From the NCBI GenBank assembly GCA_016212885.1, contig JACRDO010000162.1:4985-68984 (forward strand): DNA of 64,000 nucleotides, read 5' to 3'. Positions 4,250 through 24,025 of this stretch are shown here, piece by piece. How positions within the stretch are numbered: the first letter of the stretch is position 1; every line of letters starts with the position of its first letter. The stretch is from Elusimicrobiota bacterium (GTDB lineage: Bacteria; Elusimicrobiota; Elusimicrobia; UBA1565). Made by a program: the position numbers and the translations under genes. The notes beneath the pieces are model-generated. The model saw only the letters and a program-made list of their open reading frames with translations, was not told where the DNA came from and did not search any database.

Positions 4250-5752
4250 ATGCCGTCCTCTCGGACCCAAATGCTGGACAAGAACAAGATCCTCCTGGTC
4301 CATCCCCTCGGCTACCGCGCGGATGCCGCGGGCACGGACATATCGCGCCTCGCCAACATCATGCCCCCGCTGGGGCTGGCCAGCATGGCGGCCTATCTCG
4401 GCCAACGGGGGATCCGCGCCGATATAATCGACTGCTACGCGCGGCCGGATTCGGACAGCCGGATCCGCGGCCATCTCCTGGCCGAACAGCCGGCCTTCAT
4501 CGGACTGAGCTGCACCACGTCCAGCTTCCACGACGGCGTGCGCATCGCCGAGTTGGCCCAGCAGGCGCTGCCGGGCATCAAGAACGTTTTCGGCGGGGTG
4601 CATGTCTCCGCCATGAAAGAGCAGGCCCTCCGGGATTTCCCAGCCGTCGATTTCGCCGTGATCGGCGAGGGTGAGGCGACCCTGACGGAGCTGGTCCAAC
4701 GGGGGGCCGACGATCCCGCCGGGATCAAAGGGCTCGTCTACCGGGACGGGGATGCCCGAAACATCCGGTTCACGGGCCACCGGGACGGCGGGATCGCCCT
4801 GGACACCCTCCCCTTCCCGGCTTACGAGAAGCTCCCCGGGTTTCCCGACGCCTATCGGCTCCCCATCTTCAACTACCCGCGGGTCCCCAACACCAGCTGC
4901 ATCTCGAGCCGAGGCTGCCCCTACGCCTGCTCCTATTGCGACCGCTCCGTCTTCCGCCGCGGTTTCCGCTGCAACTCCGCCGAATACCTCTACGCACACC
5001 TGCGCTACCTGAAGGAGCGCTTCGGAATCCGCCATATCAATTTCTACGACGACCAGTTCACCTTCAACCGCGCCCGGGTGGAGGAGTTCGCGGGGCTGAT
5101 GATCGAGCGCCCCTTGGATATGACCTTCAACTGCGCCGCGCGGGCCGAACACATCGACCTGGACATGCTTCGGCTGATGAAGGCGGCCGGCTGCTGGATG
5201 ATGAGCCTGGGCATCGAAAGCGGCGATGAGCGGCTCCTGGCGCAGCACCGCCAGAACGTCCATCTGGACCTCCTGGCCGAGAAGATACGGCTCATCAAGC
5301 AGGCGGGGATCCGGACAAAGGGCCTGCTGATGATCGGACTGCCGGGGGAGACGGAAGGGAGCATCCGCCGGAGCATGGACTACGTGTTCTCGCTGCCCAT
5401 CGACGATTTCAATCTGGCGAAGTTCACCCCTTTCCCCGGCTCGCCGATCTACGAGCATATCCATGAACTGGGGGAGTTCGACGAAGATTGGGAGAAGATG
5501 GACTGCATGCACTTCCTCTTCGTCCCCAAAGGGATGAGCCGCGACCGTCTGGAGGAGCGGTTCAAGGCTTTCTACCGCGCCCACTTCGCGCGGCCGAAGG
5601 TGCTCTGGGGCTATGTCGCCATGCTGTGGCGCTCGCCGGACAGTTGGCTGCGCTTCCTCCGCGGCCTGTCCGGCTTCCTCCGGTACACCCGGACGACCCA
5701 GCGCTACACGGAGTCGCAACCGCGCGTCCGCAGCCTACGGACCAGGCAGTAG
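4250..5752 (+). CDS. B12-binding domain radical SAM protein (class B rSAM)
   Basis: N-terminal cobalamin-binding Rossmann-like region (KILLVHPLGY...DIIDC...), then a radical-SAM core with CxxxCxxC (SSRGCPYACSYCD). About 500 aa. Confidence 0.8.
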   Translation: MPSSRTQMLDKNKILLVHPLGYRADAAGTDISRLANIMPPLGLASMAAYLGQRGIRADIIDCYARPDSDSRIRGHLLAEQPAFIGLSCTTSSFHDGVRIAELAQQALPGIKNVFGGVHVSAMKEQALRDFPAVDFAVIGEGEATLTELVQRGADDPAGIKGLVYRDGDARNIRFTGHRDGGIALDTLPFPAYEKLPGFPDAYRLPIFNYPRVPNTSCISSRGCPYACSYCDRSVFRRGFRCNSAEYLYAHLRYLKERFGIRHINFYDDQFTFNRARVEEFAGLMIERPLDMTFNCAARAEHIDLDMLRLMKAAGCWMMSLGIESGDERLLAQHRQNVHLDLLAEKIRLIKQAGIRTKGLLMIGLPGETEGSIRRSMDYVFSLPIDDFNLAKFTPFPGSPIYEHIHELGEFDEDWEKMDCMHFLFVPKGMSRDRLEERFKAFYRAHFARPKVLWGYVAMLWRSPDSWLRFLRGLSGFLRYTRTTQRYTESQPRVRSLRTRQ

Positions 5753-8415
5753 GTGAGGAACGCCGCGAAGGTTCCGACAACCGGCCCGACGACCAGGGCG
5801 CCGAGGAACCACTCCCATAGCCGATGATGGACTTCCCCCAGCAGGGTCTGGCGGTTGAAGTCGGTCCAGAACCTGCCGAAGAGGAAGAGATGGCCCGCCT
5901 CGATGCAAAGGAGCGGCATGAACGGGGCGACGCATACGTTGCTGGCGCCGATCCCTGCGAGCTTGTTTAGGTGGAGCTTGTGGTTCGCGTAGAGGATCGT
6001 CGCCAGGCCGAACGGGATGATGGGAAGCGCGCCGATGCAGATGCCGACCCAGACCGCCGCGGCGAGCTCGCCCGCGCCGGCGTGCTCCTGGCTGATGCGC
6101 CGGAAGAACTGGAGTGGGCTCGTGAACTTGGGCACGATGCTCGTTTTCTCCGCCGCCCCGTACATGCAGCGATGCGGCCAGGGGAGCAGGGGACGGGCCA
6201 CCAGCCATGCATGGAGGCAGCTCAGGCGCAGATTGTCCTTTAGCGGATGGAAGTGGGACGCCCGTCCGTCCCCAGCCGGATAGCAGACTGAGACCGGAGT
6301 CGAGACGACCGGGAGTCCGGCCCACACCGCGCGGACTAAGACCTCCACCTCGAACGGATAGCGCTCGGAGATGAATTCTCCCGAGGTCAGGTATCCGACG
6401 GGATAGAGACGATAGCCGCTCTGTGTGTCCGGGATGGTCTGCCCGCACTCGATCCTGACCCAGAAATTGGAGAAATCCCTTCCGAAAACGCTGGACCGGG
6501 GCGCGTTGCCCGATTCCATGCGCCTGGCGCCGATGATGACGGCGGGCCAGTTGGACGCGGCAATCTCCAGAAGGCGCCGCCCATCGGCGGGGTCGTGCTG
6601 GCCGTCCGCATCGATGGTCAGGATGGCGTCATAACCGAGCTGCTTTGCGGCGGCCGCGCCCGCAAGGATGGCGGCCCCCTTTCCCCGGTTGACCGAGAGC
6701 CGGCGGCGCTCGATGGGAAGGCCGGCCACGGCATCGAGGCTTCCGTCCGTGCTCGCATCATCCACGACCATGACCGGGTACCCCTCGGCCAGAGCCCGTT
6801 CGACGACGCCCCGGACCATCCGGGCATGGTTGTAGACCGGTATCACCAGCAGGGTCTTCGGCGGGAGAGCTCCCGCCTGGGCCGCGCCCGCCGTCCCCGC
6901 CGTCGCCGGGACGGACTCGGGCGCGTGATCGTCCCGGCGGGCCGCCACCTCCAGCAGGATCCCGCCGGAGAACCAGGACTTGAAGAGATGCGTGGTGATC
7001 TCCCGCGGTTCGAACCCGGCGGCCCGCAGCATTGATTCGATCTCCCCGCCGGTGTAGGCCTTCAGCCAGATCCCCTGCCGCATGGCGTTGCCGATCCGCG
7101 CAAACAGCCGGATCAGGGAACGCCGGGCGGTGATGAAATAGAGGGTGCCGCCCGGCTCCACATGCCCGGCCAGGCGCCGGAGCAGGGCGGGGAGGTCAAA
7201 GACGTATTCGAAGCATGAGAAGGCGCAGACTACGGGGAATGTCCCCTCCAGTTCGATGTCTTCCAAGTCCCCGGCGACGGTCTTGATGTTGGAGAGTCCC
7301 GCCGCCGCTGACTTCTGCTGCAGGATGCGGAGCATGTTGCGGGAGATGTCCACGGCCACGATCTCGCGGCAGCGTCGCGCGATCGGAAGCGTGAAGATAC
7401 CCGTGCCGGCGCCCAGCTCCAGGACCCGGTCGGCCCCGGTGAAGAGCTCGGGGACGCGGGCGGTGAACAGCTCCAGCTCCTTGCGCCGCGCGATGGACAC
7501 GCCTGAGTCGAACTGCTCGCGGTCGTAGGCGCCGGCCAAGCCGTCGTAGAATAGTTCCGCCGCGTCCGGGCCCGGCGCCGGCTCGCCCGTCCGCATCACC
7601 TCTTTGCCGATGAGCCGGTCGAGGGGGAGTATCTCCAACCCCTTCGCCCGGAGTCCGGCGAGCAGCGCCGCGAACTCCCCCAGGAGCGCCGCGACGTTGC
7701 CCGTCCGCGGCGGGACGTCGTGAAGCAGAATGATGTCCCCAGGGGCCGCCTTGGCCAGCAGATGGGCTGAGAGTCCGACGACCCGCCGGTTGCCCATGTC
7801 GAAGGCGCGGCAGCTGAAATTGACGCAATAGAGACCCTCCTGGAGCAGGACCCGCCAGAGATGCGGGCTCGTGATTCCTACGGGAGGCCTGAAGGCGCGC
7901 GGCGTGACGCCGAACCGCTTCAATACGCGCTGAGCGGAACTCACCTCCGCCTCCAGGACGGACCTGCCCTTGATCATCAGGAACGGGGAGTGGCTGTAGG
8001 AGTGGTTGCCGATTGAGTGGCCGCGGGCGAGTATGTCCCGCACGATGTCGGGGTAGCGTTCGGCATTGACGCCGGTCATGAAGAAGGTCGCGCGCACGCC
8101 GTGCCTTTCCAGAAGGTCGAGCAGGAGCGGGGTCACCTGCGGATCCGGGCCGTCGTCGAAGGTGAGGGCCACGCCCCGCCGCCCATGACCCCGGGTGATG
8201 ATGGGCAGATAGAAGCTGAATCTCGGAAGGAACGAGGCCAGAAAGGACAGAAGGATGGCCGCCAGCAGCGGCACAAACGCCAGCTTGACGTTGAAGGGGA
8301 GCAGCAGCGCGAAGAGCTGCAGAGCGCCCAGCGCGACGAGATGAGCGGGCGCCAGCGGGCAGATCATCGAGCGCCTGCGTTCCTCGCGCCCTCTTGGCCC
8401 GGACCCGACGCTCAC
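5704..8415 (-). CDS. multidomain membrane enzyme: TM anchor, polysaccharide deacetylase (CE4/NodB), class I SAM methyltransferase, GT2 glycosyltransferase, DUF2062-like C-terminal TM region
   Basis: In N->C order: TM helices; NodB motifs (ALTFDDGPDP, HSYSH); SAM-binding VLELGAGTGIF; GT2 motifs (LLVIPVYNHARMV, VVDDASTDGS, DADGQHD); then a hydrophobic DUF2062-like tail. It is one continuous 903-codon frame. Its 3' end overlaps the convergent rSAM gene by about 49 nt. Confidence 0.7.
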   Translation of the reverse strand: MSVGSGPRGREERRRSMICPLAPAHLVALGALQLFALLLPFNVKLAFVPLLAAILLSFLASFLPRFSFYLPIITRGHGRRGVALTFDDGPDPQVTPLLLDLLERHGVRATFFMTGVNAERYPDIVRDILARGHSIGNHSYSHSPFLMIKGRSVLEAEVSSAQRVLKRFGVTPRAFRPPVGITSPHLWRVLLQEGLYCVNFSCRAFDMGNRRVVGLSAHLLAKAAPGDIILLHDVPPRTGNVAALLGEFAALLAGLRAKGLEILPLDRLIGKEVMRTGEPAPGPDAAELFYDGLAGAYDREQFDSGVSIARRKELELFTARVPELFTGADRVLELGAGTGIFTLPIARRCREIVAVDISRNMLRILQQKSAAAGLSNIKTVAGDLEDIELEGTFPVVCAFSCFEYVFDLPALLRRLAGHVEPGGTLYFITARRSLIRLFARIGNAMRQGIWLKAYTGGEIESMLRAAGFEPREITTHLFKSWFSGGILLEVAARRDDHAPESVPATAGTAGAAQAGALPPKTLLVIPVYNHARMVRGVVERALAEGYPVMVVDDASTDGSLDAVAGLPIERRRLSVNRGKGAAILAGAAAAKQLGYDAILTIDADGQHDPADGRRLLEIAASNWPAVIIGARRMESGNAPRSSVFGRDFSNFWVRIECGQTIPDTQSGYRLYPVGYLTSGEFISERYPFEVEVLVRAVWAGLPVVSTPVSVCYPAGDGRASHFHPLKDNLRLSCLHAWLVARPLLPWPHRCMYGAAEKTSIVPKFTSPLQFFRRISQEHAGAGELAAAVWVGICIGALPIIPFGLATILYANHKLHLNKLAGIGASNVCVAPFMPLLCIEAGHLFLFGRFWTDFNRQTLLGEVHHRLWEWFLGALVVGPVVGTFAAFLTYCLVRRLRTRGCDSV

Positions 8416-8502: not shown

Positions 8503-10269
8503 TCAAAACCGGGGGCATCCCCTGCAGGCCTCGGGCGGGTCCGCTCCGAGCATGCGGCTGCGATGCTCGGTCATGGTCTGAGCGTTCCAGATCTCCGCGA
8601 AGGGTCGCCTCAGGAGGTTCCCGATCGGGACATTCGGCTGGCAATCGCAGAGAGTCACATCGCCGCGCACGCCGATCGGGACCGTCTGCCAAGGGGAGAA
8701 GCACCAGGCGTGCCGGCTCGAGCGGCTGTAGAGCTGGCTCGGCGGCAGGAGCAGGAATTCATCGTAGCGCTTCCAGAGGCCGAACTCCTCGATCCCGCGC
8801 ACGGACAGCACGGGCATGCCCGCCCGGAACGCTCTCGAGATTCCGCGGCGGATCGCGGCGGAAACGCGCCTGTTATGGTTGCGCCACAACGTTTTCGGCT
8901 CATTGGCCGCGAAATTGAGGTCCGTCAGCATCAGCCCCTGCACGCCGAGCCCGGCGATCAAATCGAGCAACTCTTCGAAATACGGCACGGTCGCCGCGGA
9001 CACCGCGGAGAACACCGCGGTGGATATCGGGCGCGAGCCTCGCGACGCTGAGACGAAGGCTTTGATGTTCTTGATCACCCGCTCCAGGTCGGTGCCCGGC
9101 CGAACCTCCGACGCGCTGCGCGGGTCCGGCGCGTCGATGCTGAAGGTAATGGACTCCAGGCCGGCCTGCAGGAGTCCGCGCGCCAGGGACGGCTCCAAGA
9201 GCATGGCATTGGTCACGAGCGATGTCCTGCGTCCCTGCGCCGCAGCCGCGGCCACCAGATCCACGACCTGCGGATGCAGGAGCGGTTCGCCCAGGCCCAC
9301 CAGCGTTATACGGTACGCATGCGGCAACAGGCCTAGGACCCTGCCGAACGTCTCACGGTCCATGTCCACGCCCTCCGGCCCGGCCGCGAGAGTGCGCGCG
9401 CAGTAGGCGCAGCGGAGATTGCAGCGGGTCGTGATCTCGACATTGGCGAAGACCGGTTCGTTATCCGCGACGGGCGTCAATCCCGGCCGCATGCCGGCGG
9501 CCCTCTGCGCGCTCGGACAGCGCGCCATGTGCCGGCAAGACGACGGAGAAAGCGTCAGGAACCGCGCCGCGTCGGGCTCGACCGCGGCGAGAGCCCCCAG
9601 GGCGCGTTCTTCATCGGGCGTCTGCGCGTGCACTGCGTCCGCAACGGCGCGAATGACCAGGTCCACGGCCAACGCATGGTTCTCCCCCCGGAACAGATCG
9701 TGTCCGGCGGACGGGACGATCGCAGCGCGTCCAGGCCGCTCGAACCCGTCCCGAGCCCAGGCGAAAGCCTCTTCGCTCGGGACCAGGTCGTCGTCAGCGC
9801 CGTGCAGGACGACGACGGGGAACTTCCCCGCGGCGCGTCGGGAGCCTACGGCGTTGATCAGCGAGACCATCTGCGCGACGGAGAGGAAGGAGATGCCGCT
9901 TCTCTTGGGCCGGTGCCTGGCCCAGCGTTCGAGGTGCGAGGGACCGATCGTCTTCGGCACGGACGCGAGGATCAACAGGGCGGGCTTGAAGGCCGAGTCC
10001 GCGAGCGCCTCGAGCGCCAGGATGCCGCCCGTGGAATGCCCCAGGAGGACGAGGGCGCGTCCTTCCCGCCGGTATCCCTCGACGGCATCGGCGATCGCCT
10101 TGATGAAGCCGGCCTGATCGAAGGACGGGGTCTGGCCGCCGCCGTGGCCTGGCAGACGGAGCCGGGTGACCGAATCATCCCCGTGGACCGCCGCCAACTT
10201 CCGCGACAGCGGCAAGAGGTCGTCGGGCGAGCCCGAGAAGCCGTGCACCAGGACGATGCCGGCGGACAT
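8503..10269 (-). CDS. fusion protein: N-terminal alpha/beta-hydrolase fold, C-terminal radical SAM with SPASM-type auxiliary cluster domain
   Basis: N-terminal VLVHGFSGS and GHSTGG (GxSxG nucleophile elbow). Then an rSAM CxxxCxxC (TTRCNLRCAYC) and a C-terminal Cys-rich SPASM-like tail (TLCDCQPN...ACRGCPRF). Confidence 0.75.
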   Translation of the reverse strand: MSAGIVLVHGFSGSPDDLLPLSRKLAAVHGDDSVTRLRLPGHGGGQTPSFDQAGFIKAIADAVEGYRREGRALVLLGHSTGGILALEALADSAFKPALLILASVPKTIGPSHLERWARHRPKRSGISFLSVAQMVSLINAVGSRRAAGKFPVVVLHGADDDLVPSEEAFAWARDGFERPGRAAIVPSAGHDLFRGENHALAVDLVIRAVADAVHAQTPDEERALGALAAVEPDAARFLTLSPSSCRHMARCPSAQRAAGMRPGLTPVADNEPVFANVEITTRCNLRCAYCARTLAAGPEGVDMDRETFGRVLGLLPHAYRITLVGLGEPLLHPQVVDLVAAAAAQGRRTSLVTNAMLLEPSLARGLLQAGLESITFSIDAPDPRSASEVRPGTDLERVIKNIKAFVSASRGSRPISTAVFSAVSAATVPYFEELLDLIAGLGVQGLMLTDLNFAANEPKTLWRNHNRRVSAAIRRGISRAFRAGMPVLSVRGIEEFGLWKRYDEFLLLPPSQLYSRSSRHAWCFSPWQTVPIGVRGDVTLCDCQPNVPIGNLLRRPFAEIWNAQTMTEHRSRMLGADPPEACRGCPRF

Positions 10270-10270: not shown

Positions 10271-11506
10271 TCAGCGCGCCTCCAATAGGCCGGCGATCGT
10301 CTCCGCCCCCCGGTATCGCCGGATGGTCCTGCCGATCTCCGCCAGGCGGGTCTTGATCGAGGGATCCCGCACGATGCGGGATATCTTCGACCCTATCTCC
10401 TCGTCGCTCATGCGGTCGAGGGCTTTGGCGTAGACGCCCGGATGGCCTTGGAAGAGCTGAGACGCGATCAGGCGCGCTCCGCAGCCCAGACGTTCCAGAC
10501 AGACGCCGTTGTGCGCCTGTTCCGGCTGGAAAGGCATCACGACCACGGGGACCTCGTACTGCAGGGCTTCGAACACGGTCATCTGCCCGCCGTGCGTGAC
10601 CAGCACGGATGCGCTTGGCCATATCGCCGGGAGCGGCGCGAACGAATAGGCGATGACCCGCGGATCGTCCGGCATGACGGCGAGGAATTCCTTCTGTCCG
10701 CCCGCGGCCAGCGCCACACGGTACCCCCGGTCGACCAGGACCTTGATGATCCTCCTTATGGAAGGCAGGCATTTCGTACAAGTGCCGAACGCCGCGACCG
10801 CGAGCGGGCGGCCGCCATCGAGCCGGGCTTGTGGGTCGAACGCGTCATAGGGCCAGCGGTTCCAGGCGATCGGTCCCACATGGAAGAGGTCCGGTCTTCG
10901 CGGCAGGGGCGCGAACTCCGGGAAATCCCACAGGAACGTCCGCTCTCCCTTGAGCATGTGCCGGATATCGCCGCGGCTGCTCGGCAGGCCGCAGGCCGCG
11001 GCCGCATCCCCGACCTTGGCCCCCGCGTAGCGGTAAAAGCCTTCGAGATCGGCCCGCTGCGCCTCCCGGCCGGGATCGCCGGCGTCGTATCCCAGGACCT
11101 CCTCGGAATCGGGCGTCATGCACCCGCAGATGAGGGAATCATAGGGGATCCCGGCGATCCGAGCCGAAGCCTTGAGCGTGAAGCGGAACACCCCGAGAAC
11201 GCGGTCCGGCCGGTGCGCCCTCAGCAGATCGACTTCCGCCCGGATGCAGTCAATTATCGTCCGGGGCCGCCGGAACCACTCCACGGACGGGAACACGGAT
11301 TCGTCGGACTCCTGGATGTCGGGCAGGATCAGATGTTCGATGGCGAGCTGGCGGAGGAAGAGCGAATGATTGCTGCCGACGGCGACCTGCGCCTCCTGGC
11401 CTCGCTTTGCGAGCGCTTCGCCGACCGCCAGGCATTTGACGACGTGCGAGAGCGAGTTGTTGCCGGGGATCAACAGATATCTCTTGCGGACGGCCGATCC
11501 CATCAT
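10271..11506 (-). CDS. GT1-family (GT-B, MGT/UDP-glycosyltransferase-like) glycosyltransferase
   Basis: C-terminal donor-binding signature VTHGGQMTVFEALQYEVPVVVMPFQPEQAHNG. 411 aa. Confidence 0.75.
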   Translation of the reverse strand: MMGSAVRKRYLLIPGNNSLSHVVKCLAVGEALAKRGQEAQVAVGSNHSLFLRQLAIEHLILPDIQESDESVFPSVEWFRRPRTIIDCIRAEVDLLRAHRPDRVLGVFRFTLKASARIAGIPYDSLICGCMTPDSEEVLGYDAGDPGREAQRADLEGFYRYAGAKVGDAAAACGLPSSRGDIRHMLKGERTFLWDFPEFAPLPRRPDLFHVGPIAWNRWPYDAFDPQARLDGGRPLAVAAFGTCTKCLPSIRRIIKVLVDRGYRVALAAGGQKEFLAVMPDDPRVIAYSFAPLPAIWPSASVLVTHGGQMTVFEALQYEVPVVVMPFQPEQAHNGVCLERLGCGARLIASQLFQGHPGVYAKALDRMSDEEIGSKISRIVRDPSIKTRLAEIGRTIRRYRGAETIAGLLEAR

Positions 11507-12076
11507 CTATTCCCCCTCCTCGCTTTCCTGCAGAGTGTGGATCTTCATGCGGTACCCCAAGCCGAGGTGCTCGAACTCCAGGTCGCTATGGAGCCGGTCC
11601 GCGCCGCCGTAGCGGATGCGCACCACCGCCTCTCCGTCCTTGAGCAGGGTCCGTTCGGAGCCCGTGTCCTGAAGATTCCAGGCCGGACCTGGGAGCGCGG
11701 CTTGGACCGCGGCGGCCGGCCAGGAGGCGAGCTGGACGTCGCGCAGGATGAGCTTCAGCGCAAGCCCCTTGGGGATGGAGCGGTCCCGCTCTTCGATGAG
11801 CTTCTCGCCGTCCCATCTCAGGGAGAGCATGCGGGTGCCGAAGGGACTCAATCCGACCAGCACCACCTCGGTCGTGGAAACCTCCACGAGGGCGGTGCTG
11901 TCGAAACGCGTCGTTCCTCTCTCGAAGGACACCTCCTGGGTCATGCTCGCCTCGAAGCCGGCTTCGGACGGCGCAAGGAGGAAGAGCCCGGGGTCGAGCC
12001 GGCGCCTGGCGGTCGCGTCGCAGCCGGGCAGAAGCAGCGCCAAGCCGAGCAGAACGAAGGCGTTGTTCCCTTTCAT
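11507..12076 (-). CDS. lipoprotein (ApeN/DUF3261-like position in the export module)
   Basis: Signal peptide with lipobox (LLLPGCD). The start was set at MKGNNAF (ATG at 12076); the track ORF 11507..13267 is an out-of-frame read-through. Assignment is by position after the MMPL exporter. Confidence 0.5.
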   Translation of the reverse strand: MKGNNAFVLLGLALLLPGCDATARRRLDPGLFLLAPSEAGFEASMTQEVSFERGTTRFDSTALVEVSTTEVVLVGLSPFGTRMLSLRWDGEKLIEERDRSIPKGLALKLILRDVQLASWPAAAVQAALPGPAWNLQDTGSERTLLKDGEAVVRIRYGGADRLHSDLEFEHLGLGYRMKIHTLQESEEGE

Positions 12077-14418
12077 GAAGTCTCGTTCCCCCGGAAGCAC
12101 GGCCCCAGCAGCCACGACAAACCGATGCCCAGGAGCATGCTGAGGCCGAATGTGTGCAGAGCCGGGGTCCGGCTGAGCGCCAGCAGCCCGAAGGACAGCA
12201 GCGTGGTCATGGCGGCCAGCGAGGAACTCAGCAGGGCGACCCGGTGGTCGCCGGCGCGGCGGTCCTGGAGGAATATCCCATAATCGATCCCCGTGCTCAG
12301 AACGAGGGCCAGCCCCAGGATGCAGAACAGGTTCGAGTTCTGCCCGGTCAGGCCGAAAATGCCGAGCGTATAGAGCGACGCGAGCATCGTGGGGGCGACC
12401 ACCCTCCATGTCCGGCGCCGGTACGTCGCGAAGAGGCAGGCGGCCACCAGCAGATGGCCCAGGACCAGAAGCCGGCCGATGCCGATGCGCAAGCCCCGCA
12501 TCATCTTCGAAAGGTCGAAGAGGTGGTCCACGAAGACCGTCCCCGGCTGGCGCCCCGCCAGTTCCTTGAGCGCCTCTACGGACCGCGGCCCGCCGACACC
12601 GCTGAGAGTGACCGCCGCAGACCAGCCCTCCGCGGTCCGCCCCATCCACAGCGAACGGAAAGGCTCCGACAGCGGCGAATCCAGCCATGTCCGGGGCGTC
12701 AGGGGCGCTGGCGGCGGAACCTCGGCCTGGCGGCGGGCCAGCAGGGCCGCCTCGGGCGAACCCAGGCCGCCGAACAGCTTGGACGCCAAGGCGCCGTCCC
12801 GGTATATCCGCCGCCACATCAGCGCGCGATCGGCTTCCTGCCGTCGCAGCGAAGGCACGAACTGCGAGACGGACTGGAAGTCCGCGATATGCCCTTGCCG
12901 CCGGGCCGCCTCGAGGCCCTCGGCCAAGGTCTCCGAGCGCTCGAGCAGGGTCTGCTCGTCGGGCGCGCTCAGCAGGAAGAATTGGCCGGCCCCCGGCAGG
13001 CGCATGAGCCTTTCCACGCGTTCCTGTTCGCGCATCAGCTCCGAGGAAGGGATGAAGAGCCGGCGCACATCGTCGTCCGGGCGCAGCCGGGTCATGCCCC
13101 AGAAGGACAGGCCCAGCAGCCCCGCGATCGCCGCCATCATGCCCCAGCCGCGGTCCAGGCTCGGCCAACGGGCATGCGCCCGCTCGAGAAAACCGGGCAG
13201 GGGTCCTAGATGGACATCGGGCATGCGGCGGCTGAGCCCGGGCAGCCAAGCCGCGACGCTCAGCCACGCGCCGCCCAGGCCCAGGATGCTGAAGACAGCC
13301 ATCTCCCTGAGGATGGGGAACGGCAGGGCCGCCAGTACCGCATAGCCGACCAGGCTCGTCGTCAGTGCCATCCCCAGCGTCGGCAGGATGCCCTTAATCC
13401 GCGCCCCGGCGTCCCAGACCCGGGTTGGATCGGCGCAGCCCGATACGTAAAGGATGCCGTAGTCCACGGCCACGCCGATGACGCTCGTTCCGAAGACGAA
13501 AGTCAGAAGATGCAGACGTTCGAAGAACATCCGGCTCAGGCCCATGGCGAGGAGACAGCCGACGCCGATGGGAAGCATGACGAGGGCCAGGGGCTTGAAG
13601 GAGCCGAACGTCAGGAGCATCAGGAGGACGATCCCGAGCAGCGAGCCCACGGCGATTGTGGACATCTCACGCTGGGCCTGCCGGGAGGCTCGGGCGCTGT
13701 GCAGGACGAATCCGGCGCGCAGGACATCCTCGGCGCCCGCCTGCTTCGCCGCGCGCACGGCGGCGTCGAGCGCGTTCGAGAGAGCCTGCTGCTCGGCGAT
13801 GGAGGCTGGATGGCCGGACAGCTCCACGAACACGACCACCCATGCGCCGCCCCCCTCCGGGATCGTGAGCCGGTCTCCGGTTGCGCTCAGGGAGCTCCGG
13901 GACGCCGCTTCCAGCAGGTTCTCGGTGAACAAGCCGAAGGGATCGGATTCCAGCGGGGCCAGGCGCGGCGGCCCGATCGGGCTGTAGAGGCTCTGCGTGG
14001 CGCGTGAGAGCAGGGCCGAATCGGGCTCCTGGCGCAGACGCTCGCGCTGGGCCGGGGTGAGCAGGCGGTAGCGCCAAGGGAGATAGAAATCCCGGGCCGC
14101 GCCGAAGACGTCAGCCTCCAGCCGGGACATGACGTGCGCGATGCCGGCCCGGCCCTTGAGCGCGTCGGAACAGGCATCCGCGGCCCGGCCGGCCGCCTCT
14201 ATGTCCCGGTGCCGCAGCAGCACCACAACACGGCGGGACCCGGCCTCGGCCATGCGCCCGACCGCCTGACTCACCAGCGGGCGCCGGCTGTCGGTGGGCA
14301 GCAGGGCCATGAGGTCCGTCTCATAGCCCGTGCCGCGGGCGCGACTCCAAAGCAGGAGCCCCCCGGCCAGGGCGGTCAAGGCCGCGAGGATGAAGGGGAG
14401 TATCCGCGGCCTATTCAA
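12073..14418 (-). CDS. MMPL/RND-superfamily predicted exporter (ApeM/HpnN-like)
   Basis: 781 aa with two blocks of TM helices separated by large periplasmic loops, the typical RND/MMPL topology. Sits next to a LolA-like gene, as in APE clusters. Confidence 0.75.
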   Translation of the reverse strand: MNRPRILPFILAALTALAGGLLLWSRARGTGYETDLMALLPTDSRRPLVSQAVGRMAEAGSRRVVVLLRHRDIEAAGRAADACSDALKGRAGIAHVMSRLEADVFGAARDFYLPWRYRLLTPAQRERLRQEPDSALLSRATQSLYSPIGPPRLAPLESDPFGLFTENLLEAASRSSLSATGDRLTIPEGGGAWVVVFVELSGHPASIAEQQALSNALDAAVRAAKQAGAEDVLRAGFVLHSARASRQAQREMSTIAVGSLLGIVLLMLLTFGSFKPLALVMLPIGVGCLLAMGLSRMFFERLHLLTFVFGTSVIGVAVDYGILYVSGCADPTRVWDAGARIKGILPTLGMALTTSLVGYAVLAALPFPILREMAVFSILGLGGAWLSVAAWLPGLSRRMPDVHLGPLPGFLERAHARWPSLDRGWGMMAAIAGLLGLSFWGMTRLRPDDDVRRLFIPSSELMREQERVERLMRLPGAGQFFLLSAPDEQTLLERSETLAEGLEAARRQGHIADFQSVSQFVPSLRRQEADRALMWRRIYRDGALASKLFGGLGSPEAALLARRQAEVPPPAPLTPRTWLDSPLSEPFRSLWMGRTAEGWSAAVTLSGVGGPRSVEALKELAGRQPGTVFVDHLFDLSKMMRGLRIGIGRLLVLGHLLVAACLFATYRRRTWRVVAPTMLASLYTLGIFGLTGQNSNLFCILGLALVLSTGIDYGIFLQDRRAGDHRVALLSSSLAAMTTLLSFGLLALSRTPALHTFGLSMLLGIGLSWLLGPCFRGNETS

Positions 14419-15010
14419 AAGACGCGCTCTCGGCTCCGCTCAACTCCGCGCCCAGCTTCACGTCGCTGAAATCGATCACGGTGCGGTCGCCGTTGGCTTC
14501 CGATATCTCGATCTTTTCCAGGGTCTTGCCGCCCTGCAGGCGGATCTGGGCGACGACCTTGGCCACCAGGGCCTCCTTGGGCTTCAGCTCGGCCTTCCAG
14601 CGGCCCTCGACCAGCGGCGGCCCCGTGATGTCGAAATGCCGCTTGAGCTCGCCCACGTCCGCGGAGAAGACCGCGAAGAGGACCTTGCTGATCAACCGGA
14701 GAGCCGGCTGGTCCTCGGCCCGCATCCGGAAGCCCACTTTGCCGTCCTTGATCTGCGCGACCTCGACGGCAGTGATCTTTATGGCGCTGAGCGCCGGCTT
14801 GAGCGTGCGCCAGAGCGCGCCCTTGTCCTTCGCCAGCACGAAATCGCCCGAGGAACGCAGGGGCCTCTTGATGATTTTGATGGTTTTGACCTGTTGGAAG
14901 CGTCCCCGCAGGACGGTGAAGGGGGTCAACTGCTTCTGGATGTCCTCGACGATGCCTGGATGCGCCGTCGCGGGAAGAATGACCAGCAGGATTGCGAGCA
15001 GGGCCTTCAT
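14411..15010 (-). CDS. LolA-like outer-membrane lipoprotein carrier family protein (ApeL-like)
   Basis: Signal peptide (MKALLAILLVILPATAHP). About 200 aa beta-rich periplasmic protein. Overlaps the exporter start by 8 nt. Confidence 0.6.
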   Translation of the reverse strand: MKALLAILLVILPATAHPGIVEDIQKQLTPFTVLRGRFQQVKTIKIIKRPLRSSGDFVLAKDKGALWRTLKPALSAIKITAVEVAQIKDGKVGFRMRAEDQPALRLISKVLFAVFSADVGELKRHFDITGPPLVEGRWKAELKPKEALVAKVVAQIRLQGGKTLEKIEISEANGDRTVIDFSDVKLGAELSGAESASFE

Positions 15011-15145
15011 GGTTCATGATGTTACACAACCGTTCTTCTGCCGTCAAACCCTGCCTTGCCCCCGGCAGGCTATCTCTTAATGACCCATTTTGTTAAACTA
15101 AAAACTCGTCCGTCAACGACGAGCCAAACATCCGCGCGATCCGGC

Positions 15146-17767
15146 ATGAAGATCAAGCTCATCTATCCGAAGTGGCCGAAACTGGCGCGGCAGACGGAGT
15201 TTCATCTGCCGCCGCACGGCCCGGTCTGCTTCGCAGCCACCGTGCCCGCCGAAGACGAACTCGTCTTCACCGATGAGAACCTGGAGGCCATCGACTTCGA
15301 CGACCAGGCCGACCTCATAGCCATCTCCTGCCTGCTGACCTGCCAGATGCCGCGGGGTTGGGAGATCGCGGACCGCTTCCGCGCGCAGGGCGTCCCCGTC
15401 ATCTTCGGCGGCATCGGGACCATGCTGCATGCCGCGCAGACCCTGCAGCATGCGGATTCGGTCTTCCTGGGAGAGACCGAAGGCCGCTTCGGAGAGGTCA
15501 TCGCAGACATGAAGCGCAAGAGCCTCAAGAAGGCGTATGACTTCCAGCACGATTTTCCCGACATAAGGATGGTGGGGCCGGCGCGGCGGGACATACTCAA
15601 CCGGAAGCTGTACAACTACCGCGGCGTGCAGATGGTCGACCTCCTCCACGCCTCGCGCGGCTGCCGGTTCGACTGCTACCCCTGCTGCGCGAGATTCCTG
15701 GGCGGCCGCTCATTCAGGCCGCGGCCGATCGACCAGGTGCTCCGGGAAGTCGAATCCATCGACAACAACCGTCTATTCTTCGTGGACAACTCGATGGCCC
15801 AGAACGACCAGTGGGAGAAGAACCTGTTCCAGGCCCTGGCCCCGCTCAAGAAGCATTGGATCTGCCATCCCATCAAGGACGACGACGAGATCCTGGACCT
15901 TGCGGCCCGAGCGGGCTGCTGGTATGTCTACCAGGCGATATTCGACGTCTCCGAGCGCATCCGCAGCCGCGTCAAGCGCCTGAAGGAGCGCGGCATCGGC
16001 GTCGAAGGGACGATCCTGCTCGGCCTTGACGAGCAGGACGAGGACGACATCAAACGGCTCGTCGACTTCCTGCTCGATATCGAGCTGGACCTGGCCGAGT
16101 TCACCGTCCTGACGCCGTTCCCGCACACCCCGGCCCGCGAAGCCCTGGCAAAGGCGGGCCGCATCCTGAGCGACGACTGGCGGCGCTACACCGGCGGGGA
16201 GGTTGTGTTCCAGCCGGCGCGGATGTCCCCGGCGAAGCTCCAGGAGCTCTACCACTACGCCTGGGACGCCTTTTACCCGAACAACAGCCAGAACCTGGCG
16301 ATGGCCAAGCTCTTCATGAAGGTCGTCGGGAAGGAACGGGGCGAGGGGACGTATCGCCGGCCGCAGCTGCTCTCAGCGGGATGGGAGGCGAAGCGCCGCC
16401 GTCGCGCAATGAAGATCCTGCTGATCTCGCCGAACCTGACGCTGTCCCCCTATCCGGTCTACCCCCTCGGCATGGGCATGATCGCCGCGGCCCTGCAGGA
16501 CGCCGGCCACGAGGTCCGGCAGCTCGATCTCCTGCAGCTGGGCCCCGGTCTCGACGCCGTGGCGCGCGAGGTCCGGCGGTTCAAGCCAGGCCTCGTCGGG
16601 CTCTCGGTGCGCAACATCGACAACGTCAACCTCCTGAACGAACAGCACTACATCCGGAACATCCGGGCCGTCGTTGCCAAGGTCCGGGAGGCCACGGACG
16701 CGCGGGTGCTGCTCGGCGGCGCCGGGTTCTCGCTGATGCCGGAGCTCATCCTGCGGGAGGTCGGGGCGGATTACGGCATCGTCGGAGAGGGGGAGGCCCT
16801 GGCGGTCGAGTTCGCGCGCAACGCCCAGGCGGGGACGTTCCCCGCGGAGCCCATCATCCGCTCGGACGGCTGGATCCCCGGCGGCCGGATCGGCCCGGCG
16901 CTCTACGACGAGAGCCTGCTCCCGTTCTACCTGAGCAGGGGCCGCATCGCCTCGGTCCAGACCAAGAGGGGCTGCGCCTCCCGGTGCGTGTACTGCACCT
17001 ATCCCCTGCTCGAAGGCGCGCGCCTGCGCGCGAGGGAGCCCCGGTCCGTCGTGGACGACATCGTGCGCCTGCGCGACCGGCACCAGGCGAAGCACATCTT
17101 CTTCGTGGACTCGGTCTTCAACGACGACGAAAAGACCTATCTCGCAGTCGTCGCGGAGATGGAGCGCCGAGGCGTCTGCATGCCCTGGACCGGCTTCTTT
17201 AAGCCTGGCGGCCTCGACGATGAGACCGTCGCGCGCATGAAGCGCACGGGCTTCGCGGCGGCCGAGATCGGCGCGGACGCCGCGTGCGACACGACGCTCC
17301 TCAGGCTCGGGAAGGATTTCACATTCCGCGAGGTCAGGGAATGCAACGACCTCCTCGCGCGCCACGGGGTCGCTGCGGCCCACTACTTCATGTTCGGAGG
17401 CCCCGGCGAGACGCCGGAAACCGTGCGGGAGGGCATACGGAACGTCCTGGGGCTCAAAGACTGCGTGGCCGTCATCTTCATGGGAATCCGCATCCTGCCC
17501 GATACGCCGCTGGCTCGGCTCGCGGTCAAGGAGGGCGTCATCGCTCCCGGCCAGGGGCTCCTGGACCCGGCCTACTATGTATCCCCGGGCGTAGACCGGG
17601 AATGGCTCGAGCGCGCTTTGACCGAGGCCTTCGCAGGGGTGCGCCGCTGCGTATTCCCCCCCGACTCCCTGGACGGCCATGTCATGGCCTTCCACAAGAT
17701 GGGCTACACGGGCCCCCTGTGGGAGATGCTCCTCCCCCGCAGAAGTCTTAGAAGAAGAAGACCTTGA
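15146..17767 (+). CDS. tandem B12-binding radical SAM protein (two complete class-B rSAM modules in one polypeptide)
   Basis: Module 1: MKIKLIYP... B12-like domain plus CxxxCxxC (SRGCRFDCYPC). Module 2 begins at MKILLISPN..., with a second B12-like domain plus CxxxCxxC (KRGCASRCVYCTYP). There is no stop between the modules. Alternative starts are at 15056 and 15083. Confidence 0.75.
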   Translation: MKIKLIYPKWPKLARQTEFHLPPHGPVCFAATVPAEDELVFTDENLEAIDFDDQADLIAISCLLTCQMPRGWEIADRFRAQGVPVIFGGIGTMLHAAQTLQHADSVFLGETEGRFGEVIADMKRKSLKKAYDFQHDFPDIRMVGPARRDILNRKLYNYRGVQMVDLLHASRGCRFDCYPCCARFLGGRSFRPRPIDQVLREVESIDNNRLFFVDNSMAQNDQWEKNLFQALAPLKKHWICHPIKDDDEILDLAARAGCWYVYQAIFDVSERIRSRVKRLKERGIGVEGTILLGLDEQDEDDIKRLVDFLLDIELDLAEFTVLTPFPHTPAREALAKAGRILSDDWRRYTGGEVVFQPARMSPAKLQELYHYAWDAFYPNNSQNLAMAKLFMKVVGKERGEGTYRRPQLLSAGWEAKRRRRAMKILLISPNLTLSPYPVYPLGMGMIAAALQDAGHEVRQLDLLQLGPGLDAVAREVRRFKPGLVGLSVRNIDNVNLLNEQHYIRNIRAVVAKVREATDARVLLGGAGFSLMPELILREVGADYGIVGEGEALAVEFARNAQAGTFPAEPIIRSDGWIPGGRIGPALYDESLLPFYLSRGRIASVQTKRGCASRCVYCTYPLLEGARLRAREPRSVVDDIVRLRDRHQAKHIFFVDSVFNDDEKTYLAVVAEMERRGVCMPWTGFFKPGGLDDETVARMKRTGFAAAEIGADAACDTTLLRLGKDFTFREVRECNDLLARHGVAAAHYFMFGGPGETPETVREGIRNVLGLKDCVAVIFMGIRILPDTPLARLAVKEGVIAPGQGLLDPAYYVSPGVDREWLERALTEAFAGVRRCVFPPDSLDGHVMAFHKMGYTGPLWEMLLPRRSLRRRRP

Positions 17768-21603: not shown

Positions 21604-22839
21604 TCATTTATGCCATCTCTTGAAGATGAGAGAAGTGTTCACGCCGCCGAACGCGAAGTTGTTGGTCATCAAGTACTCGACCTGGAGCTCGCGGGGGGCG
21701 CCGATGACGTAGTCCAGCTTCCCGCAGCGCGGATCCACGTTCTTCAGATTGAGCGTGGGAGCGACCCATCCCTCCCGCATCATATGGACGGATATCCAGG
21801 CTTCCAGCGCGCCGCACGCGCCCAGCGTGTGCCCCATGTAGCTCTTCAAGGAGCTGATCGGCAGGCGCTCGCCGAATATCCGCTGCGTGGCCTGGCTTTC
21901 CGCGATGTCGCCGAGCTCCGTAGCGGTGCCGTGCGCGTTGACATAGCCGACGGCCGAAGGATCCAGCCGGGCATCCTCCAAGGCCAGGCGCATCGCCCGC
22001 TCCATCCCCTCGCTTGAGGGGTTCGTCATGTGCACCCCGTCGCAGTTGGTGGCGTAGCCTGCCAGCTCGGCGAGGATGGCCGCACCTCGGGCTTTGGCAT
22101 GGTCAAAGTCCTCCAGAACCAGAGTGGCCGAACCTTCGCCCACCACCAGGCCGTCCCGTTCCACGTCGAAGGGCCGCGGCGCGCAATGAGGCGTCTCGTT
22201 CTTGGTGGAGGTGGCGTACATGATGTCGAACACCACGGCGTCAATCACATGGAGTTCCTCCGCGCCGCCGCCCACCATGACGGCTTGTTTGCCGTACTTC
22301 ACGGACTCGTAGGCGTACCCGATGCCCTGGCTCCCGGCCGTGCAGGCCGAGCAGGTGGGGATCACCCGGCCCTTGATGCCGAAAAACTGGCCGAGGTTCG
22401 CGGCGCAGGTGTGGCTCATCAGTTGGATGTAGGTGACCGGCGAGACGCCCTTGACGCTCTTGTTGACATAGATCAGCCGGCAGTATTCCTCCATCGCGGG
22501 CGGGGAGCCGGAGGTGGACCCGAACGAGATCCCGGTCGATCCGTCGCTCAGGATGGGAGAATCCAGCAGCTTCGCTTCCATCAGCGCGAGCTCGGTGGAG
22601 CGCGCCGCCATCAGGGCCACCCGTCCCATGGTGCGGATCTTCTTGCGCGGGTAGTGGTCCGGCGCGGCGAAATCCGCCACCCGGCCTGCCAGCCGGGTCA
22701 GCATGCCCTCGACCCCGCCCCAATCCGGCATCGCGACGATGCCGGACTTCATCCCCCGCAGGTTCTCCCGCACCGTCGGCCAATCCTGCCCGAGCGGGCA
22801 GAGCCCCGCCATCCCAGTCACGACGACCCGTTTGGTCAC
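21604..22839 (-). CDS. fabF: beta-ketoacyl-ACP synthase (KAS I/II family)
   Basis: Active-site Cys in IPTCSACTAGS; His motifs (YVNAHGTAT, KSYMGHTLGACG); C-terminal NNFAFGGVNTSLIF. GTG start at 22839 overlaps the fabG stop (ATGTTGTGA). Confidence 0.8.
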   Translation of the reverse strand: MTKRVVVTGMAGLCPLGQDWPTVRENLRGMKSGIVAMPDWGGVEGMLTRLAGRVADFAAPDHYPRKKIRTMGRVALMAARSTELALMEAKLLDSPILSDGSTGISFGSTSGSPPAMEEYCRLIYVNKSVKGVSPVTYIQLMSHTCAANLGQFFGIKGRVIPTCSACTAGSQGIGYAYESVKYGKQAVMVGGGAEELHVIDAVVFDIMYATSTKNETPHCAPRPFDVERDGLVVGEGSATLVLEDFDHAKARGAAILAELAGYATNCDGVHMTNPSSEGMERAMRLALEDARLDPSAVGYVNAHGTATELGDIAESQATQRIFGERLPISSLKSYMGHTLGACGALEAWISVHMMREGWVAPTLNLKNVDPRCGKLDYVIGAPRELQVEYLMTNNFAFGGVNTSLIFKRWHK

Positions 22840-23561
22840 AACATGCCCCCGTTCACGGAGATGCACTGGCCCGTAATATAGGCCGCTCCTTGAGAGAAGA
22901 GGAAGGCGACGGCGGCGGCCACCTCCTCCGGCTGGCCCACGCGATGCAGCGGGATGGCCTTCACGATTGAATCCAGCGGCAGCCCATCGATCATCTCGGT
23001 CTCGATGAGGCCCGGTGCGACGCAGTTGACGGTGATCTGCCGCTTCCCCAGCTCCCTGGAGAGCGCCTTGGCCGCGCCGATGATCCCCGCCTTGGCCGCG
23101 CTGTAGTTGACCTGGCCGCGGTTGCCCGCGATCCCGGACAGCGATGACATGGCGACGATGCGCCCGCCCTGCTTTGCGCGAACCATTTCCATGGCGAGCG
23201 GCGAGAGGACGTTGAAGAACCCGTCGAGGTTCGTCCGCAGGACTATGTCCCATTGCTCGCCGGTAAGCGCGGGGAACGGCGCGTCCGCGATGGCGCCGGC
23301 GTTGCACACGACGCCCCAGAAGACGCCGCGGCGCTGGATGTCTTCGGCCAGCGCACGACGCGTCCCTGGGCGGTCGCAGACGTCGAAGGGCAGGAGACTC
23401 CCGGAACCGCCGCCGGCCAGGATGCGCGCGAGAGCCTCGTTCGCCGCGGCCTGGCTGCTCTTGTAGTTGACCGCCACATCGAATCCGTCGGCCGCCAAGC
23501 GCAGGGCGGTGGCGAGCCCGATGCCGCGGCTTGCGCCCGTGACCAGAACTCTTCTCTTCAA
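22836..23561 (-). CDS. fabG: 3-oxoacyl-ACP reductase (SDR family)
   Basis: TGASRGIG cofactor motif and a YSAAK catalytic motif. 241 aa. Confidence 0.85.
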   Translation of the reverse strand: MKRRVLVTGASRGIGLATALRLAADGFDVAVNYKSSQAAANEALARILAGGGSGSLLPFDVCDRPGTRRALAEDIQRRGVFWGVVCNAGAIADAPFPALTGEQWDIVLRTNLDGFFNVLSPLAMEMVRAKQGGRIVAMSSLSGIAGNRGQVNYSAAKAGIIGAAKALSRELGKRQITVNCVAPGLIETEMIDGLPLDSIVKAIPLHRVGQPEEVAAAVAFLFSQGAAYITGQCISVNGGML

Positions 23562-24025
23562 AGCTCGCTCTCCTCAAGGAACCGCTCGATCTCCTTGGGC
23601 CGATACAGGTTCAACTGAGCGGCGACGAGCGTCCGCCGGGTTACGGCGTCCTGAACCGAACAATCGAAGACGAACAACTCCCCCTCCCCCCAGACGCGCC
23701 GCGCCGACACGTGCAGCGTCTGCCCCGGGGTGAAGCCCCGCGTCCGGATGTCGACGCGCCGCGAACCCAGCAGAAAGCCGACACTGGGCCCTACGCCGCG
23801 GGCCCGGTCGGCCATCCCGGCGTGGGCGGCCACGGCCTGCGCCATGTATTCCAGGCCGACCCAGGCCGGGACTTCCCCGTCCTCCAGGAACATCGACTCC
23901 GGGGTGAGAACCGCATCGCAGACGGTCCCCTGCGCGTCATGGCTGATGACGCGGCGCAAGAGCACCATGCGGCCGGAATGCGGCACGACGTCCCTTGCCT
24001 CTACCGGGGGTGTAAGAGTGTCCAT
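23558..24025 (-). CDS. hotdog-fold 3-hydroxyacyl-ACP dehydratase (FabZ/FabA-like, ApeI-like)
   Basis: About 150 aa with an FabZ-like core (GRMVLLRRVISHD ... AWVGLEYMAQ). Lies between the KS-like gene and fabG. Confidence 0.6.
   Translation of the reverse strand: MDTLTPPVEARDVVPHSGRMVLLRRVISHDAQGTVCDAVLTPESMFLEDGEVPAWVGLEYMAQAVAAHAGMADRARGVGPSVGFLLGSRRVDIRTRGFTPGQTLHVSARRVWGEGELFVFDCSVQDAVTRRTLVAAQLNLYRPKEIERFLEESEL

Follow-up and report, generated by a model that had tools for sequence, protein, structure and literature searches.

A fused hydrolase–radical SAM gene as one form of a conserved glycosyltransferase-associated module in aryl-polyene-type lipid clusters

We analyzed a 64,000-nucleotide stretch of an Elusimicrobiota bacterium genome (assembly GCA_016212885.1, contig JACRDO010000162.1, positions 4,985 to 68,984; hereafter the window), centering on the gene at 8503..10269 of its minus strand. 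Within one frame of 588 amino acids opened by an ATG, the gene encodes an alpha/beta-hydrolase, a linker, a radical S-adenosylmethionine (SAM) core and a predicted Twitch-type tail. We found it to be the fused form of a conserved module of three activities, a family 1 glycosyltransferase (GT1), a serine hydrolase and a Twitch radical SAM enzyme, which occurs in three arrangements, the fusion among them. The module accompanies the aryl-polyene and "ladderane-type" (TIGR04072) type II fatty acid synthase/polyketide synthase (PKS) lipid clusters of anaerobes. The architecture and the module we hold with high confidence. Our best reading of the function, with a probability of roughly 0.45, is that of a bifunctional esterase and Twitch radical SAM enzyme, the fused form of the module, tailoring a glycosylated lipid head group.

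Few biosynthetic gene clusters are predicted more often in bacterial genomes and metagenomes than the aryl-polyene and ladderane-type ones. Their full products are known for a few Proteobacteria only, and the version of the clusters present in anaerobes contains radical SAM genes without assigned chemistry. The module defined here is compact, portable and conserved, and its occurrence spans at least nine groups at phylum level. Uncultured anaerobes carry it widely, attached to very common clusters; its split form also occurs in two cultured and fully sequenced hosts, Desulfosediminicola flagellatus and Desulforhopalus singaporensis, and this opens it to experiment. For radical SAM enzymology, the family offers a predicted two-cluster enzyme with a built-in hydrolase as a target and, for lipid chemists, a handle on the products of the clusters.

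A genuine and old fusion within a three-activity module

The DNA of the window has a G+C content of about 67%, at which long open reading frames (ORFs) commonly arise by chance, and several antisense ORFs of 200–600 amino acids overlap 8503..10269. The calling of the gene therefore rests on homology and not on length. The original prediction, made from the letters of the window, had described one continuous 588-codon frame joining a hydrolase to a radical SAM enzyme, and this description held for the ORF list, the Pfam matches, the homologues and the AlphaFold2 model alike. The motifs named in it were all present: GHSTGG lies at residues 77–82, CNLRCAYC is the sequence of residues 283–290, and the tail ends in TLCDCQPN...ACRGCPRF-stop. 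Pfam matched Radical_SAM at residues 277–408 (E = 2.7e-21), SPASM at 523–586 (E = 4.8e-12) and Abhydrolase_6 at 5–196 (E = 2.3e-10), each above its gathering score. The protein is 100% identical to GenBank entry MBI5245211.1, "alpha/beta fold hydrolase [Elusimicrobiota bacterium]," which derives from a metagenome-assembled genome (MAG).

A homologue search among 5.8 billion proteins, with clusters counted at the 90% clustering level, recovered at least 120 clusters with the same domain order. Their members are 568–604 amino acids long, are 48–65% identical to the fusion and come from independent assemblies representing many phyla. Using the radical SAM half as a query, an exhaustive HMMER scan found about 45 representatives (50% level) with scores over 260 bits; almost all are about 585 amino acids long and matched at residues ~260–588. 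Species-representative genomes contained at least 23 full-length copies and, among the matches listed, every copy came from a MAG. The hosts include Nitrospirota, Spirochaetota, Desulfobacterota, Planctomycetota, Methylomirabilota and Elusimicrobiota as well as Bacteroidales, Beta- and Gammaproteobacteria and bins labeled "Bacillota."

Modeled with AlphaFold2 from an alignment of 38 sequences, the fusion showed two folded domains and a structured helical linker, with a mean predicted local distance difference test score (pLDDT) of 91.3 and a predicted template modeling score (pTM) of 0.91. The linker (residues 206–271; 9457..9654, minus strand) contains the conserved residues E231, H247, P252 and P272, and helices at residues 198–257 were modeled with pLDDT above 90. 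We conclude that the hydrolase–radical SAM fusion is genuine and old. Both halves belong to known kinds, a Twitch radical SAM enzyme and an esterase-type alpha/beta-hydrolase, while the fusion family itself is uncharacterized and unnamed: no curated NCBIfam family came near its cut-off with the fusion protein, a full-text literature search returned no description of the fusion or of a glycosyltransferase/hydrolase/radical SAM module, and no solved structure in the PDB and fold comparisons spans both halves.

The most informative and indeed decisive feature of the gene context, overlooked by the original prediction, is the gene directly upstream. It encodes a GT1 of the macrolide or natural-product type (411 amino acids; 10271..11506, minus strand; Pfam and NCBIfam MGT family), with OleD, CalG and YjiC among its PDB relatives. 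The two genes meet in the sequence TGA-c-ATG, the stop codon of the glycosyltransferase lying 1 nt ahead of the ATG of the fusion, and a GGAGG motif is found 9 nt upstream of the same ATG; the glycosyltransferase is translationally coupled to the fusion.

To place this pair among its relatives, we searched all window ORFs with tblastn against 27 fusion-encoding loci. Of these, 26 have a homologue of the glycosyltransferase, which at about 50% identity is as strongly conserved as the fusion, and it stood directly upstream, mostly within 48 nt, in all 25 main-family loci with upstream sequence. Within 10 kb of the fusion, the ketosynthase (KS) and the chain-length factor (CLF) each occurred in 17 of the 27 loci, the B12-binding radical SAM gene in 16, the LpxL-like acyltransferase in 15, the acyl carrier protein (ACP) in 14, the family 2 glycosyltransferase (GT2)/deacetylase in 13 and MMPL in 8. 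The pair is self-contained, as several loci have it with little else. In a Phycisphaera MAG (L017), its neighbors are 2-oxoglutarate dehydrogenase genes on one side and a sigma-54 activator on the other, and PKS genes are missing within 10 kb; the pair stands alone in the MAG locus L026 as well. In L025, its sole companion is an LpxL-like acyltransferase directly upstream of the glycosyltransferase, and L086, a locus of a second fused subfamily, has the same acyltransferase–pair arrangement.

The association extends to more distant lineages. The second subfamily of fusions, about 527 amino acids long and 31–36% identical to the main family, combines the same hydrolase, radical SAM core and five-cysteine tail with a shorter linker; its genes are ordered flavodoxin/LpxL-like acyltransferase/glycosyltransferase/fusion in L086 and deacetylase/glycosyltransferase/fusion/MMPL in L088. 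In an unfused lineage (28–37% identity), the glycosyltransferase (455–458 amino acids), the alpha/beta-hydrolase (221–224 amino acids) and the radical SAM enzyme (376–379 amino acids) are encoded by consecutive overlapping genes. We found such split trios in L089, L090, L091 and L092, their hydrolases retaining the HG motif, GHSLGG, the Asp and the His, and a further locus, L087, has an unfused radical SAM gene with a separate hydrolase gene upstream. The glycosyltransferase homologue lies directly upstream in L086, L088, L089, L090, L091 and L092, and the homologues of all three lineages keep the His21/Asp101 dyad and the donor motif GG...PxQPEQxxNG. Because the glycosyltransferase is upstream in fused and split lineages alike, we consider the unit of selection to be the module of GT1, serine hydrolase and Twitch radical SAM enzyme.

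Two of the split loci come from the cultured hosts, L091 from Desulfosediminicola flagellatus (CP050698.1, 5,524,074–5,545,213) and L092 from Desulforhopalus singaporensis (FNJI01000022.1). In these Desulfobulbales, the trio adjoins a block of amine-oxidase (phytoene-desaturase-like), KS, ACP, acyltransferase, AMP-ligase and radical SAM genes, with PagL and a B12-binding radical SAM gene nearby. The same block contains a second radical SAM-SPASM gene of about 350 amino acids. Rattray et al. (2009) described a syntenic "ladderane-like" type II fatty acid synthase gene set in Desulfotalea and Kuenenia that includes a "GT" and a "SAM" gene, with no hydrolase mentioned (PMC2649909), and the surroundings of the split module match this gene set. 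The anammox-specific core cluster studied since then is without a glycosyltransferase or hydrolase. The window shares with the ladderane-type clusters a full TIGR04072 member, encoded in the neighborhood of the fusion.

Catalytic signatures of the two halves

The radical SAM core (residues 272–520; 8710..9456, minus strand) carries the cluster-binding motif C283xxxC287xxC290 (9400-9423) and the SAM-binding motif G325-L-G-E-P. The three cysteines are invariant in the 38 sequences and across all three lineages, and G325-L-G-E328, corresponding to the "GGE" motif, is invariant in the 38 family members. The family-profile score exceeds the curated cut-off and the fold is a partial TIM barrel, which gives this half the features of the radical SAM superfamily.

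The tail (residues 521–588; 8506..8709, minus strand) had been taken for a SPASM-like domain, a type that would have seven cysteines. We found instead exactly five invariant C-terminal cysteines, C523, C541, C543, C582 and C585, in the 38 family members and in all three lineages, which removes the basis of that assignment; their codons run from 8701-8703 (C523) to 8515-8517 (C585). The pattern reads C-x12-G-x4-C-x-C ... C-x2-C-P-R-F-stop. The first half of the SPASM motif, CX9-15GX4C, is present as the invariant C523-x12-G536-x4-C541, but of the second half, CX2CX5CX3C with a distal cysteine (seven to eight cysteines in total), the tail has C582-x2-C585 alone before it ends in P-R-F-stop. A cysteine pair on a beta-hairpin and a CX2C are what defines a Twitch domain and would suffice for one auxiliary cluster. 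As five cysteines can ligate one such cluster only and the protein ends three residues past the CX2C, we classify the tail as Twitch-type, with one predicted auxiliary [4Fe-4S] cluster and not two as in SPASM proteins.

Profile comparisons agree with this classification. In a PDB profile search, BtrN ranked first (E = 7e-14), with aligned stretches over both the core and the cysteine hairpin, and C523 and C541 fell on the cysteines of the BtrN Twitch hairpin; the NCBIfam twitch-domain model N_Twi_rSAM matched residues 521–585. The Pfam SPASM model is covered from end to end (1–67 of 67) by the short tail, and a match to it therefore cannot separate SPASM from Twitch. The family is thus something of an annotation trap, its Pfam "SPASM" match being really a Twitch domain and its NCBI name reading merely "alpha/beta fold hydrolase." By fold, the best match of the radical SAM half was BlsE, as BtrN was by sequence, and SuiB, ChlB, SkfB, CteB and the anaerobic sulfatase-maturating enzyme (anSME) also ranked high. 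Such fold similarities place both halves in their superfamilies and do not alone identify the class of substrate.

The hydrolase domain (residues 1–205; 9655..10269, minus strand) has the H9-G10 oxyanion motif, the nucleophile elbow G77-H-S79-T-G-G, Asp160 and His190, the codon of Ser79 being located at 10033-10035. Across the 38 family members, H9-G10, G77-x-S79-x-G81-G82, D160 and H190 are invariant. The GxSxG elbow, the order of the acid and the histidine, the HG oxyanion motif and the fold are those of the alpha/beta-hydrolases, and the complete triad Ser79/Asp160/His190 in canonical order predicts a catalytically intact serine hydrolase. The best matches by fold were feruloyl esterases and monoacylglycerol lipases, enzymes that cleave aryl-acryloyl-sugar esters and acyl-glycerol esters, respectively. 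The fold also resembles RifR, DcsB and RhlA (type II and related thioesterases), and the Pfam Thioesterase model PF00975 gave 23.2 bits (E = 9e-5), below its cut-off of 26.4; both by profile and by fold, esterases and lipases outscored thioesterases.

Feruloyl/cinnamoyl esterases and bacterial monoacylglycerol lipases (Hydrolase_4/Abhydrolase_6) resemble residues 1–205 in their Ser-Asp-His triad, HG oxyanion motif and small helical cap. They are, however, stand-alone, often secreted and catabolic enzymes, are 16–22% identical to the hydrolase of the fusion, and differ from its cap, which has a conserved R115-W116-x-x-H119 motif of its own. Taking the two halves together, the family is neither strictly SPASM nor a PF00975 thioesterase, and it is not a maturase of sulfatases or of peptides made by ribosomes and then modified post-translationally (RiPPs).

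Proposed function and competing explanations

In the proposed function, GT1 would glycosylate a hydroxyl of a lipid or pigment intermediate, and the radical SAM domain would abstract a hydrogen from the sugar or cyclitol so installed. The outcome may be a carbinol oxidation, a decarboxylation, an epimerization or a ring rearrangement, by comparison with BtrN, BlsE, DesII, Cds and HpnJ. The esterase domain would remove or transfer a fatty acyl or aryl-polyenoyl group that is ester-linked to the same head group; fusion of the domains would hold the two steps on one substrate, and the finished glycolipid would leave through the MMPL/LolA/DUF3261 export system. We offer sugar tailoring as a tentative mechanism, plausible by analogy but placed somewhat short of even odds.

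The enzymes closest to the radical SAM half act on sugars. BtrN, BlsE and DesII abstract hydrogen at carbinol carbons of sugars or cyclitols. BtrN, the 2-deoxy-scyllo-inosamine dehydrogenase of butirosin biosynthesis and the archetypal Twitch radical SAM enzyme, is a stand-alone protein of about 250 amino acids with no hydrolase and is about 22% identical to the fusion. Compared with BtrN, the fusion family has a fifth invariant cysteine (in the C-x-C), a longer insert between the core and the Twitch domain, and a lipid-cluster context; its loci are without aminoglycoside genes, except for BtrH_N-like proteins in some. BlsE, a cytosylglucuronate decarboxylase, and DesII, a TDP-sugar deaminase/dehydrogenase, also lack a fused hydrolase (17–20% identity), and their pathways lead to nucleoside or deoxysugar antibiotics, unlike the lipid context of the fusion.

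For lipids, a glycosyltransferase followed by radical SAM remodeling of the lipid-bound sugar has been described in the formation of calditol (Cds) and of the hopanoid cyclitol ether by HpnI (GT2), HpnK (deacetylase) and HpnJ (a B12-binding radical SAM enzyme) (PMC13459092). The logic of first glycosylating the lipid and then remodeling the sugar would be common to these routes and the module and, as in the hopanoid route, the window contains a GT2, a deacetylase and an HpnJ/BchE-like B12-binding radical SAM gene beside the fusion. Yet Cds and HpnJ are not Twitch–hydrolase fusions, the likeness to HpnJ belongs to the gene at 4250-5752 and not to the fusion, and the lipid scaffolds differ, isoprenoid for calditol and hopanoids and polyketide or fatty acyl for the cluster of the window.

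A sugar ester is also part of the canonical aryl-polyene product, which contains an aryl-polyenoyl-sugar ester: in the aryl-polyene lipids of Xenorhabdus, the polyene is esterified at C6 of GalNAc-1-phosphate-glycerol, where it is installed by the glycosyl/acyltransferase ApeJ (10.1101/2020.12.19.423268). The module is often accompanied by an LpxL-like acyltransferase, a polysaccharide deacetylase and a BchE/HpnJ-like B12-binding radical SAM gene. Proteins with BtrH_N/DUF4872 domains (of the ACP-to-amine acyltransferase type), paired with an ABC transporter, recur near it (L001, L004), and L002, L004 and L092 have PagL-like lipid deacylases. The BtrH_N, PagL, deacetylase and LpxL-like companions hint at an acylated amino-sugar head group, similar to that of lipid A.

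Several points weigh against a role in head-group tailoring. The sugar-tailoring step is drawn from gene neighborhood and analogy; the lipid-chain radical SAM enzymes GDGT-MAS and Tes are also among the matches; and with the 4HBT genes of L004 and L005 as tblastn queries, no stand-alone thioesterase homologue was detected in the 64-kb window, which would allow for a release role in this cluster.

Such a role was the suggestion of the original prediction, in which the gene replaces the stand-alone thioesterase of aryl-polyene clusters and couples release to radical chemistry on the polyene. The hydrolase would load the ACP-bound polyene onto Ser79, forming an acyl-enzyme, the radical SAM domain would perform C–C, C–O or C–S chemistry on it, and ApeK, a hotdog-fold (4HBT) protein unrelated to the hydrolase fold of the fusion, would be dispensed with. 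The weak Pfam Thioesterase match, the resemblance to RifR, DcsB and RhlA, the lack of a detected 4HBT gene in the window and the presence of ACP, KS and CLF within 10 kb in 14–17 of the 27 loci are consistent with this, as is the intact triad, which is compatible with an acyl-enzyme intermediate; alpha/beta-hydrolases can, moreover, act as transacylases. The Thioesterase score is, however, below the Pfam cut-off, and the module and a stand-alone thioesterase are not mutually exclusive, a 4HBT thioesterase coexisting with the fused or split module in L004, L005 and L091. The pair in the Phycisphaera MAG has no PKS or ACP genes nearby, and this pair and the esterase/lipase fold matches also speak against a coupling of release to polyene chemistry. 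Finally, the model leaves the glycosyltransferase unexplained, although the invariant partner is that enzyme and not an ACP or a KS. We regard replacement of the thioesterase as unlikely, though it survives best among the alternatives.

Staying with the tailoring of a glycosylated head group, one may go further and suppose that the lipid head group or linkage made by the module in anaerobes is one not described before. The radical SAM domain may turn the sugar installed by the glycosyltransferase into a carbocyclic cyclitol or a keto or deoxy sugar, or it may forge a C–C or ether bond from the sugar to an acyl chain held on Ser79. We think of this as a long shot; if true, the aryl-polyene and ladderane-type clusters would yield a new class of polyene glycolipids resistant to acid or hydrolysis.

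Alternatively, the protein could remodel membrane lipids independently of any polyene, the lipase-like domain deacylating a glycerolipid or glycolipid and the radical SAM domain forming or altering a C–C or ether bond in an alkyl chain in the manner of Tes and GDGT-MAS. Monoacylglycerol lipases among the top hydrolase matches, the stand-alone pair in L017 and the co-occurrence with PagL, LpxL-like and PlsC-like lipid enzymes would fit such a role. Tes-type enzymes, however, have a full SPASM domain and extra clusters in place of the five cysteines of the fusion family, and the Tes match is confined to the generic radical SAM core. Nor does the scheme have a use for the invariant GT1, an enzyme with relatives that glycosylate hydroxyls of small molecules, and we consider a chain-modifying role improbable.

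A peptide or protein maturase, either a RiPP SPASM/Twitch enzyme or an anSME-like generator of formylglycine, would agree with the high fold ranks of SuiB, ChlB, SkfB, CteB and anSME and with the Pfam SPASM match. The original prediction had already doubted such roles, and we share the doubt. Pfam finds no RiPP recognition element or other peptide-binding domain, the N-terminus being a hydrolase; every NCBIfam maturase model scores far below its cut-off; the cysteines suffice for one auxiliary cluster only; and in the neighborhoods, made up of lipid, sugar and PKS genes, neither a precursor peptide nor a sulfatase recurs, though no systematic search for small ORFs was made. This makes a maturase very improbable.

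The last alternative, that an assembly or frameshift error joined two genes, might be entertained for a window from a MAG and a family with unfused relatives, but it is effectively refuted: a mis-joined frame is excluded by the continuous frame of about 587 amino acids kept in at least 120 independent clusters of many phyla, by the conserved linker and by a pTM of 0.91 with that linker structured, and a frame conserved in independent assemblies is stronger evidence against mis-joining than the reads of any single assembly could provide.

The aryl-polyene cluster and other genes of the window

The original prediction had placed the gene among lipid and polyketide enzymes, and the annotation bears this out with an aromatic ammonia-lyase, KS, CLF, ketoreductase (KR), ApeP, ApeI, ACP, AMP-ligase, LolA, MMPL, DUF3261 and acyltransferases. 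The aryl-polyene core (21604..31095, minus strand) comprises a KS, the KR (22836-23561), ApeP, the CLF, a second KS, the ammonia-lyase, the LpxL-like (Lip_A_acyltrans) acyltransferase (27553..28554; Pfam), which is a frequent extra partner of the glycosyltransferase–fusion pair, an AMP-ligase fused in a single ORF to an ApeI-like dehydratase (28604-30532), and the ACP (30796-31095), all on the same strand. The ammonia-lyase and the AMP-ligase would supply the aryl starter. A PlsC-like acyltransferase is also found in the region. KS, CLF, KR, the ApeI/ApeP dehydratases, ACP and the MMPL exporter are the defining components of an aryl-polyene cluster, and all of them are present.

The export set lies between the core and the glycosyltransferase (11507..15010, minus strand; Pfam) and consists of DUF3261 (ApeN-like), MMPL (ApeM-like) and LolA-like (ApeL-like) genes, a set suited to exporting an outer-membrane lipid. 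Downstream of the fusion in the same minus-strand operon, after a gap of 87 nt from its stop codon, an ORF of 903 amino acids (5704..8415, minus strand; Pfam, NCBIfam) combines a polysaccharide deacetylase, a SAM methyltransferase, a GT2 and DUF2062, the last two being ApeJ-like. Canonical aryl-polyene clusters and the window have in common KS/CLF/KR/dehydratase/ACP, LolA, MMPL, DUF3261, GT2-DUF2062 and acyltransferases; the described Proteobacterial clusters, in contrast, list no GT1, no alpha/beta-hydrolase–radical SAM gene and no B12-binding radical SAM gene (10.1101/2020.12.19.423268).

The plus strand carries two genes of the B12-binding radical SAM type, both identified with Pfam and NCBIfam. 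The one at 4250..5752 is BchE/HpnJ-like, its best partial matches being BchE (182 bits) and HpnJ (171 bits), both below cut-off, and is the gene counted in 16 of the 27 fusion loci. It is 66% identical to the B12-binding radical SAM protein beside the split trio of Desulforhopalus singaporensis (L092) and hence far more conserved than the glycosyltransferase (25%) and the Twitch radical SAM enzyme (32%) of the same two loci. An antisense ORF at 4181-5719 (minus strand) was rejected as a gene, as it has no Pfam match and tblastn and Pfam put the real gene at 4250-5752 (plus strand). The other, an ORF of 903 amino acids at 15056..17767 (plus strand), fuses two B12-binding radical SAM units, the C-terminal one being the full TIGR04072 member ("lipid biosynthesis B12-binding/radical SAM protein"), with a score of 623.5 bits where the cut-off is 360.

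The cluster of this Elusimicrobiota bacterium is unusually rich in fusions, the ORFs at 5704-8415 and 28604-30532 being further examples. In the sister loci L002 and L004, the two units of 15056-17767 are separate adjacent genes, and in L002, L004 and L005, the components of 5704-8415 are separate genes as well. Searching the window with tblastn, we found no homologue of the PagL, BtrH_N, FAD-oxidoreductase and 441-amino-acid unknown proteins of the sister clusters, and scans of the same DNA for Rfam families and tRNAs returned nothing.

Four minus-strand genes within the lipid cluster are outside the described aryl-polyene gene set: an outer-membrane-protein beta-barrel gene (17748-18302), a WD40-repeat protein of 620 amino acids (18371-20233), a DUF4410 protein (20264-20884) and a protein of 220 amino acids without a Pfam match (20868-21530). 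Unrelated to the cluster, the ORF at 61487-63388 (minus strand, 633 amino acids) has a TCAD9 domain (ternary complex associated domain 9) and weaker isochorismatase and APH-like matches; TCAD9 is a domain type described from NTP-dependent conflict systems.

Against the background G+C fraction of about 0.67, the window shows dips at 36–38 kb (0.51), 42–44 kb (0.54) and 50–52 kb (0.55). Three large ORFs without a Pfam match, at 35577-37442 (plus strand), 50430-51665 (minus strand) and 55531-57207 (plus strand), lie in or near such low-G+C patches and may represent foreign or fast-evolving DNA. The dip at 42–44 kb holds an ordinary glucose-1-phosphate nucleotidyltransferase gene beside a glycogen phosphorylase gene.

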